Source of the DNA: a virus
Taxonomy: Duplodnaviria > Caudoviricetes
Direction: 5' to 3' (one strand)
Virus record (IMG/VR): IMGVR_UViG_3300020043_002012
Span: 1-26,662 of that record
Length of the DNA: 26,662 bases
Part shown: piece after piece, positions 3,598-24,311 of the stretch
Layout of the letters: each line of letters begins with the position of its first letter
How positions within the stretch are numbered: the first letter of the stretch is position 1
Program-made: the position numbers and the translations under genes
Notes under the pieces: model-generated
Seen by the model: only the letters and a program-made list of their open reading frames with translations
Database searches by the model: none
What the model was told of the DNA's origin: nothing

Positions 3598-3624
3598 AGA
3601 ATCTCCTTTACATACCCAATTATA

Positions 3625-6727: not shown

Positions 6728-7053
6728 CGGGTCAACCTTTCTATATTTCTGTCGTTAGCTTGTTGGGTACGCCATGCTTCGAAACGCATCTTGGCGGCTT
6801 CTAATTGCCATCTAAGGGCTTCTTTTTGCTCTACCGCTAACCCTATGGCTTTGCATAGGTCTTGATACTCTTGACTGCGGTAGGCTTCTCGTTCTTGAGC
6901 ACCAAGGCTTTGTTCGTCAGTTTGCGACATCTTAATGGCTTTAAGACTGTGCCTAAAGTTCTCAAGCTGAGCTAGTTCACCGCTTGCTTTAGCGTATTGC
7001 GGTGCTGTTTTAAATATAAAATCTATTGCTTCGTGTGGGTCATACTCTTTCAT
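6724..7053 (-). CDS. Helical/coiled-coil phage hypothetical protein
   Basis: Start MKEYD at 7053 with GGGGGG RBS; coupled to neighbours. Confidence 0.75.
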   Translation of the reverse strand: MKEYDPHEAIDFIFKTAPQYAKASGELAQLENFRHSLKAIKMSQTDEQSLGAQEREAYRSQEYQDLCKAIGLAVEQKEALRWQLEAAKMRFEAWRTQQANDRNIERLTR

Positions 7054-7247
7054 TTCCACTCCCCCCAGTTACCTTTGTTACCTTTTTTCCATTGGTCTGC
7101 AAAGCCTATTAGTAAATTACTATCAAGTTGGTATTTTGATAAATATTCTCTAAACTTTGCTAACCCCCATTGACTACGCCACTTGCATAACTGCCGTACT
7201 GCACATTGATGTTTGTATTCAAGCGAATAATAACTGTTGTGATTCAA
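7050..7247 (-). CDS. Hypothetical protein, Trp-rich C-terminus
   Basis: ORF in operon (HQCAVRQL...DQWKKGNKG); start uncertain. Confidence 0.65.
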   Translation of the reverse strand: MNHNSYYSLEYKHQCAVRQLCKWRSQWGLAKFREYLSKYQLDSNLLIGFADQWKKGNKGNWGEWK

Positions 7248-7830: not shown

Positions 7831-8201
7831 TCTATTTCCATCCCCATTCGCATCATACATTTTTTCTTTAAAGTATCGTAGCTGTCGTACCCGTTACCCA
7901 GTATTCCTAGTTCACGAGCTTTGTTCTCAATACCTTGTTGGCTAAACATCCAAGACCTATCCACCTTTTCTTTGGCGGGGGTCATGTCTAAAACATCTTC
8001 CCATCGTGCAGCGTTTATCCAACTCGCAGGGTACGGGATGTAGTCTATTTCGGTTCGTTTAAGTTGCCAATGTCTAAGGTGTTTAGGCAAGGCTTCTAAG
8101 GCTTCACGCTTTTCAAGGTCAGTCAATCGTTTCCAAGCAATCTCAGCTTTTTTCTTGGCGACCTTTTTGGGCCAATTCATCCAAAACTTTTCAAAATCCA
8201 C
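7827..8201 (-). CDS. Short replication-initiator-like protein (resembles the C-terminal domain of phage replisome organisers)
   Basis: FEKFW..WPKKVAKKKAEIAWKRL...YIPYPASWINAARWED; GTG start with AGGGGGA RBS. Confidence 0.65.
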   Translation of the reverse strand: MDFEKFWMNWPKKVAKKKAEIAWKRLTDLEKREALEALPKHLRHWQLKRTEIDYIPYPASWINAARWEDVLDMTPAKEKVDRSWMFSQQGIENKARELGILGNGYDSYDTLKKKCMMRMGMEID

Positions 8202-8210
8202 ACTATCCCC

Positions 8211-8357
8211 CTATTTTGTTGCAAGTATATAAAGTCCAACATTACTAAATGCGTAACCGCTATATACAACCGCCATAGCTGTATTACCTTTAAAGCCTTG
8301 TTCAGCAGCTATGTAAAAATAAATTAAACCAGTAACAATGATTAGCCAAGAACTCAA
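8211..8357 (-). CDS. Small membrane protein (48 aa, two hydrophobic segments)
   Basis: Manual ORF (TTG) MSSWLIIVTGLIYFYIAAEQGFKGNTAMAVVYSGYAFSNVGLYILATK; TTGA overlap. Confidence 0.65.
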   Translation of the reverse strand: MSSWLIIVTGLIYFYIAAEQGFKGNTAMAVVYSGYAFSNVGLYILATK

Positions 8358-8542
8358 AATGGTGCATCCTCAAATTTAGGCTTATCAGCCTTAACATACT
8401 GGTAAGTCCAATCGGTATAGGTTTTAATTAAATGCTCGGCTTCATGCTTAGTCTTTACTGTACGCATTAATTCACCATGCTCATCATAAATTTTGTAATG
8501 GCTATAAGCGTTTATGCGGTCATCGGTAGTAAAGGTAGTCAT
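8354..8542 (-). CDS. Hypothetical protein (62 aa)
   Basis: GGGGGATTT-ATG RBS; ends in EDAPF. Confidence 0.75.
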   Translation of the reverse strand: MTTFTTDDRINAYSHYKIYDEHGELMRTVKTKHEAEHLIKTYTDWTYQYVKADKPKFEDAPF

Positions 8543-8565
8543 AAATCCCCCGTAAAGACTGTAGG

Positions 8566-8579
8566 TTAAGTTTACTTAA
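8566..8579. promoter_or_regulatory. Palindromic operator copy 1 (TTAAGTTTACTTAA)
   Basis: One of four TTAA-N6-TTAA copies, all upstream of operon starts. Confidence 0.65.
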
Positions 8580-8699
8580 TAATAAGGTATATAGGGATAA
8601 ACCCTTATAACTCATAAGTATTACATTAACGCCTATAAAGTAACCTATAAGTTACATTATGTTGGTATATATAATTTACATATAACTTTTTGTATTAAA

Positions 8700-9045
8700 G
8701 AACCCTTTACTTGCAAGCTCTTTTCCCATAGAACGACCAACGCCACAAGTGGCGATACTGTCAAGAGATGTATCGAGTAACGACTCTACCCAAGCTGGCT
8801 TGACCCAGTATCTTGGCGGCTATCGCAGGTGTCGACCCTCGCTCCGATGCTGAATCTCCATCGGCCTCTAGCCCATCCCCGACTTCTTCTAACACCCTGT
8901 CGTTTCGGGTGGCAGAAATAGAAAAACCCCTTTGGGTAGCTCTAAGTTGAACCCGCTTTAGGAAGCACTCCACAGGCTTTCCAAAACGCTCAAAGCTACC
9001 CAAAAGGGTCTTAATGGAGTTCTACTAAACAGGGTTCAATCTGCT
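8700..9045 (-). ncRNA. Putative structured non-coding/leader RNA
   Basis: ~24-bp helix 9012-8989/8946-8923 that pairs fully only on the minus strand (four G-U pairs), followed by a U-run. A second helix 9039-9015/8972-8947. Further hairpins CACCC/GGGTG, CCGATG/CATCGG and CGCCA/TGGCG. TATACT -10-like element at 9056-9051. Confidence 0.6.
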
Positions 9046-9064
9046 TATACAGTATACAACAAAA

Positions 9065-9301
9065 TCAACGCAACTCAGGCCATATCAACTGGTATGAGTC
9101 AGGAAATAAGTCTTTGCGGCTTACCAATCCTTTAGATTCTTGCTCTAACAAAGCCCCCAAATACACCATTTTATCGGCTGGAATACCTGAGTTTTTCCAC
9201 ATAGACACCGCAGGTACGCTAATTTTGCAGATTTTGGCTATTTTGGTAGGCCCACCCAGTAACTCGATAATTTGACTATCGGTAAACATTTTCTTCTTCA
9301 T
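9065..9301 (-). CDS. Cro-like HTH transcriptional regulator
   Basis: LGGPTKIAKICKISVPAVSMWKNSGIP...RKDLFPD, a Cro/YdaS-type pattern. Confidence 0.85.
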   Translation of the reverse strand: MKKKMFTDSQIIELLGGPTKIAKICKISVPAVSMWKNSGIPADKMVYLGALLEQESKGLVSRKDLFPDSYQLIWPELR

Positions 9302-9370
9302 TAAGCAAGTTTAACAAAAATACAACGCCATATCAAATAGTTTGCACATTTATTTAATTTGGCTTAATAT
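9301..9370. promoter_or_regulatory. Divergent control region with a rightward sigma70-like promoter and operator copies 2 and 3
   Basis: TTGCAC-N17-TAATAT (9342-9370); palindromes TTAAGCAAGTTTAA (9301-9314) and TTAATTTGGCTTAA (9354-9367). Confidence 0.65.
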
Positions 9371-9396: not shown

Positions 9397-9621
9397 TTGG
9401 AGATGATTATGGATGACTTACAGGAATTACATAACGAAATGATGGCAGAGCAAGAACGCCTTGAGATAGCTTTAGATAAGGCAGAAGATGGTGATATGTT
9501 GACATTGGCAGAAATTGACCTAATTAGGTTTCATTGTGGCTTACCCAATAAGCGTAGGATTAGCCCCATTTTGGGTACGATTTTTGACGATTTTTCTAAT
9601 ATTTTTGGGGGGAAACAATGA
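9397..9621 (+). CDS. Hypothetical early protein
   Basis: First ORF of the rightward operon; GGAG RBS suggests a start at 9409. Confidence 0.7.
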   Translation: MEMIMDDLQELHNEMMAEQERLEIALDKAEDGDMLTLAEIDLIRFHCGLPNKRRISPILGTIFDDFSNIFGGKQ

Positions 9622-10376: not shown

Positions 10377-10405
10377 CTGGGGGAATTAACCTTTAGGAGT
10401 AAGCC

Positions 10406-10603
10406 ATGAACCACATGATTAAAGACTTTATTGACCAAAAATATACAGTCAAGACCTTTCAAGAACGGGGCTACGATGAAGAAGTACCCATCATTGGATT
10501 TGCCCAAGATGACTTGGAAACTGTCATTAAGACTGTGGTTCAGGCTTGTGCCGACAGGGTTAAAAACCTAGAAGATAGAACGGCAATACTACAGTTAATG
10601 TAA
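10406..10603 (+). CDS. Hypothetical protein
   Basis: AGGAG RBS; in operon. Confidence 0.72.
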   Translation: MNHMIKDFIDQKYTVKTFQERGYDEEVPIIGFAQDDLETVIKTVVQACADRVKNLEDRTAILQLM

Positions 10604-10621
10604 TGTTTAACAGGGGGAATT

Positions 10622-11380
10622 ATGTTAGTGAAAGAGAATACAAGTGAGAGCGGTCATTGGTACTTACCCGATGGCAGTCCAGCCTATCGCATCATTGGCA
10701 AGAACGGCAAAGAAAGAAACTCAACTGTCAAAGACGCAAGAGAACATGGCTTATTGCCCTCAGTTACCACAATTATTGGTTGTGCGTCAAAACCCGCATT
10801 GGATGTATGGAAACAACAACAAGCCATACTGTCCGCTCTTACATTACCTCGCTTAGAGGGTGAATCTGAGGAAGATTGGTTAAGTCGGGTTGTATCGGAT
10901 TCTAAAGAAACTGCCAAGCAAGCTGCGGAACGGGGAACGCAGATACATGGGGTCATAGAAGCCTTCTACGAGGGCATTTACCTACCTGAGCTACCACCCT
11001 ATGTCCGAGCCGTAGAAAGTGCCATAAACGAGCATTTTGGCTCACAGCTATGGATGGCAGAGAAGTCCTTTGCTTATGGGGGGTTTGGCGGTAAATGCGA
11101 CCTAATTAGTAAATCCCATCAAAAGTCTGATGGCTTTGTAATTGACTTTAAAACGACTGAAAAAGACTTAGATAAGCTCGATTACTTCTTTGACCACCAA
11201 ATGCAGTTATCAGCCTACCGCCAAGGGTTTGAGATGCCTAAAGCTCGGTGTGCGATTGTTTATGTCAACGCCCTACAAAATAAGGCTAAACTAGTCGAGA
11301 TACCTGAAGATGACCTGAGAATTGGGTGGGAATGTTTTACCCATTTATTAGCGTTTTATAGGGCAAAGAATAAACTATAA
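10622..11380 (+). CDS. PD-(D/E)XK exonuclease (RecB/Cas4-like phage family)
   Basis: PSVTTII, RGTQIH, E..F, GKCD, IDFKT and QLSAY motifs. Confidence 0.88.
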   Translation: MLVKENTSESGHWYLPDGSPAYRIIGKNGKERNSTVKDAREHGLLPSVTTIIGCASKPALDVWKQQQAILSALTLPRLEGESEEDWLSRVVSDSKETAKQAAERGTQIHGVIEAFYEGIYLPELPPYVRAVESAINEHFGSQLWMAEKSFAYGGFGGKCDLISKSHQKSDGFVIDFKTTEKDLDKLDYFFDHQMQLSAYRQGFEMPKARCAIVYVNALQNKAKLVEIPEDDLRIGWECFTHLLAFYRAKNKL

Positions 11381-11387
11381 TGATTAC

Positions 11388-11439
11388 GGGGTGGCGGCAA
11401 TCCCCCTGCCACAATCTCCTTCACACCGAGGGCCACCCC
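11388..11439 (+). ncRNA. Putative small RNA with two anti-SD motifs
   Basis: GGGGTGGC/GCCACCCC closing stem, inner GGCA/TGCC hairpin, motifs CAATCCCCCT and CAATCTCCTT; TATAAT at 11376-11381. Confidence 0.55.
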
Positions 11440-11445
11440 ACCTTT

Positions 11446-11543
11446 ACAGGGCGTTAAGCCGCCCCAAGAGGATGTGGCAAGTAACGAATTTTGCGGCTTT
11501 CAGCGTTACATGAAACAGCTACCAAATCTTGCCCTGTCTTTTT
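11446..11543 (+). ncRNA. Putative pseudoknotted RNA followed by a T-run
   Basis: Stems ACAGGGC/GCCCTGT, AAGA/TCTT, GTGGC/GCTAC and GTAACG/CGTTAC; pseudoknot AAGCCGC (11456-62) with loop GCGGCTT (11493-99). Confidence 0.55.
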
Positions 11544-11560
11544 ACTCTTATACAAGACTT

Positions 11561-11601
11561 AGGGTATGTCCCTAGTATATTAATATGTTAAGTTGGCTTA
11601 A
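11561..11601 (+). promoter_or_regulatory. Composite site: AGGG-N5-CCCT palindrome plus operator copy 4 (TTAAGTTGGCTTAA)
   Basis: Same arrangement as 8566-8605, upstream of an identical GGGGGATTT-ATG start. Confidence 0.6.
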
Positions 11602-11633
11602 TATTTAATTGTTGTTTAACCAAAGGGGGATTT

Positions 11634-11726
11634 ATGAAAGACTTTTTATTAGGTATCGTTGCAGGTCTATTAGCATTTGGCATACCTGCTATTGTGTATG
11701 TGTGGAGAACTGGGGGTATATCATGA
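11634..11726 (+). CDS. Single-TM microprotein (30 aa)
   Basis: Manual ORF MKDFLLGIVAGLLAFGIPAIVYVWRTGGIS; AGGGGG RBS; ATGA overlap with the next gene. Confidence 0.65.
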   Translation: MKDFLLGIVAGLLAFGIPAIVYVWRTGGIS

Positions 11727-22110: not shown

Positions 22111-22545
22111 CTATTCTCCCTTGTTTAAAGAGCATCGGATGTTAAGAAACCGACACTCCTCTTTTCTCATAGCCATAATCACTAAATCACCACTCATGTG
22201 GGCATCAGGTATTTCAGCTACAACCTTAAAGCCCAAATGTCGGTTTAACTTTAGGGCGTCTGTGTTATCAGCACAGATTTGCCCTAGTATAACGCTAACT
22301 CCAAGTTTATTAAAGGGGTAATCAAATACCGCCCATATAAAATCTTTACTAGCCCAATGCTCACCAACGCTACCAATATGTATTTCACAAGCCTTTGGCA
22401 TAAAGTTGGTATATCCAGCCACCGCTACTAAATTGCCGTCTTTTAACTGCCCGATACATTGGGTGGTTTCAGGTAGGGGAAAATTGAGGATTCTGACTAG
22501 CCATTCCCCCAAATAGCGTTGATTTTCAGTCGTAACAGTCCTCAA
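22111..22545 (-). CDS. GNAT-fold acetyltransferase-like virion-assembly protein
   Basis: FDYPF..LG, N..ALKLN.HLGF motifs; TTG start at 22545 with GGGGG RBS. Confidence 0.75.
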   Translation of the reverse strand: MRTVTTENQRYLGEWLVRILNFPLPETTQCIGQLKDGNLVAVAGYTNFMPKACEIHIGSVGEHWASKDFIWAVFDYPFNKLGVSVILGQICADNTDALKLNRHLGFKVVAEIPDAHMSGDLVIMAMRKEECRFLNIRCSLNKGE

Positions 22546-24311
22546 ATAACTCCCCCTCTTTCCATTACAAAATCGGTTGATGCCCAATGAAATTCAATAC
22601 CTTGCGATGCCACATTCATACTAACTGACCCTGCATAGCCTAATCCTGTCACGCCTTGCCATATTTTAGTGACCACTAAGCCACCGCCCCAGTTGGCGTT
22701 ATCCCATGTATCTAAGTCCCATTCACCTGTTTGTAGAATAGAAGGGTTAAAGGATATTTGACTAGTCAATTCAACTGTATCAAAATCGGTGCTTAAACCG
22801 CATAAAACAGTCGGTATGCCGTTATCGGTCTGTAGGATAGGGCGTACTAGGGTAAAGCGTTTTTGTTGCCCCCTAGACTCAAAATACGAGTAGGCTTGCT
22901 GTACAAAGCCTTTAATATTAGTTCCAGCGTCGGCAAAAGTGTCGTAAAACTTGCCTACAAAACCAGTTCCACCAAAATACATATCGTCACCGCTAGATTC
23001 CCAGCAGTTAGCACTAATATTGGTAAATCTTCCCCATGACTTTGTAATATTGTGCATTACATACTGCTCAGAACCCCCTGTTACGGGGATATTAAGAATC
23101 AACATATTGTGTTTAGCAAAGTAATTCATTTGCCAGCCGTAATTTGTAGAGTATTGGTCGGCAGCTTGGTTAATTGCGTAGAAAATCTTGTCTGTAATGT
23201 TAACTCGTGGGTCTAAACGGGTAGATTGCAAGCCTGCCGATAAAGGTACAAGTCCATCTTCGGTCAAAAGTAGAATGTCACCACCAAATTTGAACACGCA
23301 TTTACGGGCAAAAGTCTGTCCAATGTTCCAAATACCGACCAAAGCCCAATCATCTACATCGGATGGGTTAGAACCCTTGTAAACGGCCACTTCTCCGTTA
23401 CTTGTAACGAATACGGCTAAGTCATCGACCCCGTAACCTGCGTCAATAGTCCAAGTTCCCATCGCTTGTAGGTAGCCACCCTTTTTAAAGATGCCACCAA
23501 GGGGAAACTCGGTTACTGCCCCGTTAATTGAATCTACGCCTAAATACCAAAAAGACAAACTGTTCTTTTCTACAAAGTACAGACGCTCTTTAAACAAGTT
23601 GACATAAGCAAATGTATTAGAATTTTTACCTGTAATGTAGTAATCAATGGTGTAAGTACCCATAACAGTTGCATCACCGCTTGGGGCGGTTGCCATTACA
23701 TAAGTTAAAGTAGTTCCACCCGTTACAGTAATTCGAAAAGTTCCGTTAAATTGGGCGGGTGTTGCCCCTGCGACTGTTATGGTGTTACCTGTAACGAGGT
23801 TATGGGCACTTGCAGTCGTTAGGGTAGCGGTTAAATTACCCGTTCCACCCCTAGTAATAGTAGAAATAGTTTCTGCTGTATCAGTTGTAGCACTTCTTGA
23901 CCATCTAGTACCATCATAAACGACCATTGGGTCAATTCCGTTGACAGCAGGCATAAACGAACCACCCGCAGTCGTAATCATGGAATGTATCCATTTACCA
24001 TCGGTGTTCCCTGTAAGACTTGAGGTAGCCGTAGAGGTACTGGCATCATAAATAATGGTAGCGGTAGATGCAAACAGCTTATTACCCGTTGGGCTAGAGT
24101 AATTCATTAAAGATAAAACAGCCCCAGTAATGCCTATAGATACTTTAGAGTAGCCTTTTCTAAGGGTTACATCCGTAGGTGTAGGAAAGAAATTAACCAT
24201 CTGAACCGCATCAAGTGGGTTCATTTCAGCCAAAGAATCTCTAGCGTTCCAACCCCCAATGGGGGATGGTAGAGAAGCTGTAACTGCCCGTCTTTGTTGA
24301 GCGACTGCCAT
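22542..24311 (-). CDS. Tail nozzle / packaged-DNA stabilisation protein
   Basis: PSPIGGWNARD start, beta-rich 589 aa, position after the adaptor gene. Confidence 0.72.
   Translation of the reverse strand: MAVAQQRRAVTASLPSPIGGWNARDSLAEMNPLDAVQMVNFFPTPTDVTLRKGYSKVSIGITGAVLSLMNYSSPTGNKLFASTATIIYDASTSTATSSLTGNTDGKWIHSMITTAGGSFMPAVNGIDPMVVYDGTRWSRSATTDTAETISTITRGGTGNLTATLTTASAHNLVTGNTITVAGATPAQFNGTFRITVTGGTTLTYVMATAPSGDATVMGTYTIDYYITGKNSNTFAYVNLFKERLYFVEKNSLSFWYLGVDSINGAVTEFPLGGIFKKGGYLQAMGTWTIDAGYGVDDLAVFVTSNGEVAVYKGSNPSDVDDWALVGIWNIGQTFARKCVFKFGGDILLLTEDGLVPLSAGLQSTRLDPRVNITDKIFYAINQAADQYSTNYGWQMNYFAKHNMLILNIPVTGGSEQYVMHNITKSWGRFTNISANCWESSGDDMYFGGTGFVGKFYDTFADAGTNIKGFVQQAYSYFESRGQQKRFTLVRPILQTDNGIPTVLCGLSTDFDTVELTSQISFNPSILQTGEWDLDTWDNANWGGGLVVTKIWQGVTGLGYAGSVSMNVASQGIEFHWASTDFVMERGGVI

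Follow-up and report, generated by a model that had tools for sequence, protein, structure and literature searches.

Why does the exonuclease gene of this phage end in what looks like a promoter, and what would be made behind it? In the window, by which we mean the whole stretch of DNA analyzed here (a 26.7-kb virus record of 26,662 nucleotides; complete relatives are 34 to 37 kb), the stop codon of the exonuclease gene (10622-11380, + strand; phrog_298, E = 4e-16) overlaps a putative −10 box, TATAAT (11376-11381, +), which ends 6 nt before a candidate 55-nt small RNA that we call unit A (11388-11442, +). The original prediction held that an RNA made here displays two anti-Shine-Dalgarno (anti-SD) motifs and represses, in trans, either the phage's own early and replication genes or host mRNAs. 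Our comparison of sequences and predicted folds leads us to propose that unit A is probably a trans-acting anti-SD small RNA, whose C-run loop would pair with the G-run SD sequences of early genes and block their translation.

Relatives were retrieved via the exonuclease. At least 399 loci were fetched, five of the seven scans giving only their best 80 loci, from an estimated ~2,200 related IMG/VR stretches. A complete exonuclease end was present in 390 records, the window included; 267 were non-redundant and 241 were counted. The counted loci comprise 93 with a C-run hairpin in the first unit (C-hairpin) and 148 without it at ≥50% identity, assigned by a hand-curated list, an automatic loop detector having given both false and missed calls. 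The remaining 26 loci stand at a greater distance; most of those listed have a protein gene directly after the exonuclease.

Structure and conservation of unit A

The arrangement originally described, TATAAT followed by an element with an 8-bp stem, was confirmed: GGGGTGGC (11388-11395) pairs with GCCACCCC (11432-11439), ACC follows directly 3′, and the stem is conserved in relatives. Inside it lie hairpin 1 (11396-11410, +) and motif 2, CAAUCUCCUUCAC (11412-11424, +), which joins an anti-SD-like stretch to a conserved UUCAC. Hairpin 1 does have the loop first described, but only AUCCCCC (11400-11406), the predicted seed, is free; the A and U at the ends of the 9-nt match form the closing pair of the hairpin. 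Unit A is predicted to fold into a closed multiloop with ACC at its end (−25.3 kcal/mol, z = −3.4; 1 of 200 shuffles was equally good). Among the 23 distinct C-hairpin variants, the unpaired probability of the C-run is 0.80 to 1.00, and the ACC tail is present in 22.

RNAalifold found no consensus structure in a plain MAFFT alignment of the 23 variants, the stems being out of register. We therefore assessed covariation in two other ways, by an end-anchored count and in a model-fitted alignment. Anchored at the ends, pairs 1 to 7 of the closing stem were formed in 161 of 161 cells, versus 71 to 104 when the strands were slid, a count that is partly circular because boundaries were set from folds and one U-A pair was trimmed in five variants. 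Pairs 3 to 7 were formed in 115 of 115 cells (shuffle mean, 78; maximum, 89). In the model-fitted alignment (21 distinct rows), which is biased towards structure, the closing helix was 100% paired, four of its seven pairs were changed on both sides, and its covariation score was 0.33, versus 0.12 for shuffled alignments (0 of 500). Hairpin 1 was only 75% paired in these rows.

The reverse complement of unit A shows GGGGGAUU and AAGGAGAUU, and a minus-strand transcript serving as a GGA/SD decoy had been raised as an alternative. We consider it extremely improbable that the minus strand is the functional RNA: its fold is weak (z = −1.0 versus −3.4), the G-U pairs of closing-stem variants can form on the plus strand only, and the TATAAT box, the ACC tail and, elsewhere in the array described below, a tRNA gene and a U-tract all lie on the plus strand.

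Unit A also proved new to the catalogs that we searched. No known Rfam family matched it in the window, in 11330-11640 (best score, Atu_At1, 24 bits versus a gathering score of 60) or in the arrays of 12 relatives, and no match to the array turned up among 50,697 phage records searched with blastn. Model R1 found nothing in 141 genomes of the order to which G009 belongs, in a search run without a positive control; R1 missed the diverged units of L107, L250, L251, L319 and L396 and those of all loop-less lineages. We found no description of unit A in the literature; it may be listed, without a function, in a catalog of 10,006 phage RNAs that was available to us in part (PMC10690425). Judged by its sequence, unit A is a real, conserved and uncatalogued element, and the original observation is not due to chance.

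Predicted targets of loop 1 in the window

We infer which genes are early from their position and from the kinds of genes present (exonuclease, replication-initiator-like, Mom-like and small genes). GGGGG ribosome-binding sites (RBSs) precede 7 of 15 early-region genes versus 1 of 34 others (Fisher p = 5e-4), and the late genes of the phage use AGGAG or AGGA. Only 10 of the 53,306 9-mers in the window (both strands) match at least 5 of the 49 translation-initiation regions at ≥7 nt; two of these lie in the loop of unit A, and the other eight are, by sequence, opposite RBSs themselves.

In our own contiguous-helix model, which includes opening costs, loop 1 pairs with the seven early GGGGG RBSs at about −6 to −11 kcal/mol, and among the 34 other genes only that at 22545 is appreciably bound. 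Predicted targets on the plus strand are the exonuclease RBS AGGGGGA (10612-10618), AGGGGGATT before a 30-aa gene at 11634 (11624-11632; 9/9 match, −10.5 kcal/mol), GGGGG before the gene at 11723 (11712-11716; −6.1 kcal/mol), and GGGGGGA before a 205-aa gene at 9618 (9607-9613; −8.7 kcal/mol; phrog_862), whose product we infer to be SSB-like. A G-run that is not an SD, upstream of the AGGAG RBS of a 65-aa gene at 10406 (10379-10385, +), is a predicted extra target. On the minus strand, the predicted targets are GGGGGATT before a 62-aa gene at 8542 (8544-8551; 8/8 match, −10.8 kcal/mol), AGGGGGAT before the replication-initiator-like gene at 8201 (8205-8212; −8.7 kcal/mol; phrog_270), and GGGGGGA before a 109-aa gene at 7053 (7060-7066; −10.3 kcal/mol). 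The five RBS matches named at the outset (the genes at 11634, 8542 and 8201, the exonuclease, and the Dps-like gene discussed under motif 2) were all exact on recheck.

The sole GGGGG site of the late region (22551-22556, −), before the 144-aa gene at 22545, is present in G004 too.

Association of loop and RBSs across relatives

The exonuclease RBS carries a G-run in 85 of 88 C-hairpin loci versus 7 of 141 loci without the hairpin, and at least one GGGGG RBS is found in 90 of 93 versus 14 of 148. Confinement to early genes recurs in four complete loop-bearing relatives (early versus other genes, 3/15 versus 0/42, 7/18 versus 0/45, 8/17 versus 1/41, and 3/21 versus 0/42), and a complete relative without the loop has no GGGGG RBS in either class (0/16 and 0/41), the genes in these counts coming from a simple gene caller. 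In L288, L368 and L389, C-runs in an open loop go with few G-run RBSs; L290 lacks the hairpin, yet 3 of its 12 sites are GGGGG.

Finer changes in the loop also track changes in the RBS. The RBS TCGGGGGA occurs in 11 of the 12 loci with loop UUCCCCCGA, in 5 of 81 with other loop types, and in none of the 148 loop-less loci. On a quick tree with long branches, this loop and this RBS change four times each and agree in all 26 representatives, though the tree yields just three independent contrasts, all in the same direction (3/3, p = 0.25), and for loop presence one, on its starred branches. L250 has a four-C loop and four-G RBSs, and L251 has the loop UACCCCC and GGGGGTA at its exonuclease. The proposed extension of the match past the SD core into the spacer did not prove general: of 11 lineages, just 3 had an RBS pool best matched by the cognate loop region, and in a fourth this region came within 0.1 nt of the top guide. 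Since the cognate region is so seldom the best, the seed is essentially 5 to 7 nt.

Some G-runs lie outside the SD. The one upstream of the AGGAG of the 65-aa gene is found in 46 of 63 close relatives and also in the distant L128 and L251, and in L103, L159 and L319 a G-loop hairpin stands before AAGGAG. Binding upstream of an intact SD or in such a hairpin loop could open structure, and the RNA might then activate or stabilize early mRNAs or act as a ribosome-loading adaptor. We think activation very unlikely, because the G-run is the only SD-like element in most targets, where pairing would occlude it.

Proposed transcription and release

TATAAT stands at or just after the exonuclease stop in 190 of 240 loci, and the last sense codon is kept as xTA, be it one for Leu, Ile or Val. 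Box and stop stand apart in L251. Behind the exonuclease stop of L066 and L346 lies an inserted ORF, HNH-like by our reading of its sequence, that displaces the array; both TATAAT and unit A are rebuilt behind it. A promoter scan at the array found no canonical −35 box and no sigma-70 pair; even so, the conserved and rebuilt box argues for an autonomous plus-strand transcription unit.

Transcription from this box would give a precursor holding unit A and further cassettes, and trimming at the closing stem and ACC, as at a tRNA acceptor end, would leave a stable 55-nt RNA. A stem with an unpaired ACC resembles the hairpin-like RNase P substrates 4.5S, c4 and CI RNA, as described in the parts of the source available (PMC5499578). 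The presence of both features in 22 of 23 variants is suggestive of a 5′ end made by RNase P; the 5′ end may also equal the transcription start.

Unit A might instead belong to the rightward early mRNA as its 3′ end and act in cis, folding back on the SD sequences of the exonuclease and genes upstream. The UCCCCUG motif in the 3′ UTR of icaR is a precedent (PMC3868564, in part). Unit A does lie directly behind the exonuclease, most TCGGGGGA sites are in that operon, and one RNA-library contig (11255-11426) spans the exonuclease stop and bridges gene and unit A, a finding compatible with read-through or with DNA. The eight public RNA runs gave assembled contigs of relatives at low depth, with no discrete unit A contig, and are uninformative for a 55-nt RNA. 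Sorted by transcription unit, the GGGGG sites divide into 154 ahead of the array in its own operon, 121 beyond the array and 68 in the leftward operon; 189 of 343 are thus in other transcription units, out of reach of an element acting in cis. Since, moreover, TATAAT keeps a fixed spacing and is rebuilt behind the HNH-like insertions, and the ACC tail and a tRNA in the array suggest that unit A is released on its own, we regard action in cis as unlikely and prefer action in trans.

Motif 2

Motif 2 (CUCCUUCAC) had been matched to the RBS of a Dps-like gene. The match to AAGGAGATT, before this 118-aa gene (3600-3608, −), is an exact 9/9 complement, but the predicted pairing is weak (−4.8 kcal/mol) and the site reads AAGGAGTTT in three complete relatives, which leaves it a weak candidate. 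Predicted pairing of motif 2 reaches about −5 kcal/mol at best and is not early-specific (p = 0.09). The claim that the RNA represses the phage's own early and replication genes therefore stands for the C-run loop, where conservation, early-only GGGGG and loop-RBS covariation back it, and is weak for motif 2.

The letters CTCCT are present in 44 of 92 C-hairpin loci and TTCAC in 75 of 92, and [CU]UCCU[UA] occurs in the first unit of 123 of the 148 loci without the C-hairpin, so that motif 2 may represent an older function. It could be read as the active part of an RNA that mainly inhibits translation in the host: its CUCCUU, which resembles the 16S tail, would mask canonical host AAGGAG sites, and the C-loop would be secondary. 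This would suit the wider distribution of the CU motif, and the CU-rich RF02278 RNAs of Burkholderia, in the portions available of the report, are predicted to cover RBSs, one of them attenuating growth when overexpressed (PMC5688073). The phage's own late genes, with their AGGAG and AGGA sites, would be hit as well, however; the anti-SD letters have disappeared from several C-hairpin lineages, and the predicted pairing is weak. GGGGG RBSs make up 0 to 4% of ORFs in samples of five genomes, none shown to be a host, a figure that also speaks against a host-directed role, and we think it unlikely that host inhibition is the main function of unit A.

An array of RNA-like cassettes

The element first described is a real stem-closed unit, but it is merely the first of an array that runs to ~11543. 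Across loci, one to four stem-closed cassettes follow the exonuclease in changing combinations, with unit A first. As read from these loci, the array is modular and swappable, its cassettes being gained, lost and exchanged. The second RNA-like cassette in the window, unit C (11446-11543, +), has a closing stem, a GGAUG motif and a U-tract end, and a 7-bp long-range pair (11456-11462 with 11493-11499, +) that is a probable pseudoknot. Unit C is present in 109 loci with the conserved letters UUAA, GGAUG, UUUC and CCAAAU; the long-range pair is complete in 75 of 77 distinct variants, among which there are six different 5′ strands. No Rfam family matched unit C above its gathering score, and readings as a CsrA sponge or a pistol ribozyme were set aside for want of an Rfam match.

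Seven loci (L009, L011, L046, L054, L064, L068 and L073) have, behind unit A, B-type cassettes with very different cargo. The B-type cassette, which does not occur in the window, has an ACC-like tail and a closing stem with GAAA/AGUA, which we take to be a bulged-G-like motif. In the L077 lineage, the B-type scaffold itself bears a CUCCUU motif. In the L102, L150 and L113-type lineages, hairpin 1 has CAAAA or CACAA, not a C-run, and these phages are without G-run RBSs. A TAGGG...CCCTA inverted repeat just behind the array (11560-11574 in the window) is kept in most relatives and is a possible protein-binding site.

A tRNA-Asn(GTT) gene lies inside the array in L138 (1467-1542, +) and L367 (4843-4918, +). 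ARAGORN, run on 259 loci, found no cloverleaf or tmRNA at unit A, its sole array match being the tRNA-Asn of L138, and an Rfam scan of the window found no tRNA. A tRNA in an array of cassettes that come and go would also fit a tRNA-like decoy or protein ligand (counter-defense, or bait for Rho, an RNase or a tRNA nuclease), in which case the RBS match would merely reflect lineage history; no clear target accounts for the conservation of UUCAC, and the independent contrasts are few. Such a decoy would leave unexplained the compensatory G-C versus U-A changes beside the run, the non-SD G-runs and the early-only GGGGG, and we find it improbable.

Whatever the role of unit A, the array reveals at least two more uncatalogued types of presumably structured RNA, the bulged-G scaffold and the pseudoknotted unit C, in a large group of uncultured phages.

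Proposed mechanism

In the trans-acting reading that we favor, the rigid C-run loop would bind the GGGG(G)A of early mRNAs from three transcription units by base-pairing, thereby occluding the 30S subunit. GGGGG pairs with the anti-SD CCUCC of the 16S tail (that of the host may differ) via one G-U pair, and CCCCC is unable to pair fully with GGAGG. One SD variant would thus be read by both ribosome and repressor. The G-run would serve as an address, since a CCCCC loop would pair with GGGGG and not with the AGGAG sites of late genes. We offer, as a bolder model to which we give somewhat less than an even chance, that GGGGG is a private SD dialect, the operator of an early regulon that is switched off at once by a C-loop RNA from a tRNA-like polycistron of swappable cassettes, AGGAG late genes being spared.

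The likely purpose would be the hand-over from early to late expression or the damping of a superinfecting relative; the phage appears not to integrate. If this is true, the SD sequence itself would act as a regulon address, a simple and protein-free timer of lytic development, and would put an orthogonal translational switch on offer. The array would, in turn, be a place in the genome where phages exchange RNA tools much as they exchange accessory genes.

Relation to known RNAs

Unit A likely works like c4 or 6C RNA, yet on its sequence it appears to be a member of neither, nor of RF02278. In the parts of the sources available, the c4 RNA of phages P1 and P7 and the CI RNA of P4 are described as stem-closed RNAs whose looped antisense elements pair with their own mRNA near the RBS; the c4 precursor is cut by RNase P, and c4 acts on the ant mRNA, part of a temperate immunity region (PMC5320573, PMC5499578, PMC12197685). 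Unit A likewise has a closing stem with looped antisense elements and is a short, RBS-directed candidate phage RNA. The c4 model (RF01695) gave no match at E ≤ 1 in the window and none in the arrays of 12 relatives. Unlike c4, unit A is predicted to address at least seven genes in three transcription units via the SD, and no tyrosine integrase (PF00589) and no resolvase (PF00239) were found in five complete relatives each; no antirepressor was found among 19 proteins scanned.

The 6C RNA (B11) of Actinobacteria binds several mRNAs through C-rich loops by G-C pairing without a chaperone, according to the portions available (PMC6486639). The 6C RNA is encoded on host chromosomes and has at least two C-rich loops, whereas unit A is phage-borne, has one C-loop directed at the phage's own genes and has no Rfam match. 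The RF02278 RNAs (Betaproteobacteria toxic small RNA, or double-hairpin RNAs) are ~60 nt long, with unpaired CU-rich stretches complementary to RBSs, as far as the accessible parts of the reports describe them (PMC5688073, PMC4603805). An unpaired CU-rich anti-RBS stretch is present in unit A as motif 2. The RF02278 form, however, consists of a leader, UGUCUCCUCC, at the 5′ end, followed by a hairpin and a terminator, without the closing stem or ACC tail of unit A; its model has no match in the window, and unit A has no double hairpin or intrinsic terminator. The model did match five of five betaproteobacterial-type assemblies, and the family is found in genomes with contigs of this phage group in their assemblies.

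In the icaR 3′ UTR of Staphylococcus aureus, a UCCCC motif behind the gene pairs with the SD, in the parts of the paper available (PMC3868564). That motif acts within one mRNA, whereas unit A has its own putative promoter box and predicted targets on other transcripts. The phage small RNAs covered in the available parts of a review have either a single phage operon or host genes as their targets (PMC12197685).

Genomic context and host

The original statement that the phage has no recognizable CI repressor needs correcting: a 78-aa gene of an HTH repressor family (9065-9301; phrog_35, E = 2e-14) is flanked by divergent early-type operons. TTAA-N-TTAA inverted repeats lie at early promoter regions of the window (11587-11602, 9298-9317, 9351-9370 and 8563-8582) and are possible operators of this protein.

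Clues to the host are mixed. In 4 of the 12 relatives scanned (L041, L046, L070 and L078), Rfam placed a Betaproteobacteria-1 RNA at another position in the early region, ~1.6 to 2.3 kb upstream of the exonuclease. This RNA, which had no match in the window, hints that the host is one of the Betaproteobacteria. Placements of relatives in metagenome-assembled genomes (Actinobacteria, Bacteroidota, archaea and Betaproteobacteria) look misbinned, terminase matches were ≤46% identical, and an endolysin search named no host.

A second noncoding slot is found at the head of the leftward operon (window ~8715-9020, −). It holds a very long hairpin (~8915-9010) that is present in more than 100 loci, and after it comes a variable, GC-rich folded stretch. 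In G007 (L408-L409), the early module and the array sit on a different morphogenesis module, which indicates that the early region is mosaic.
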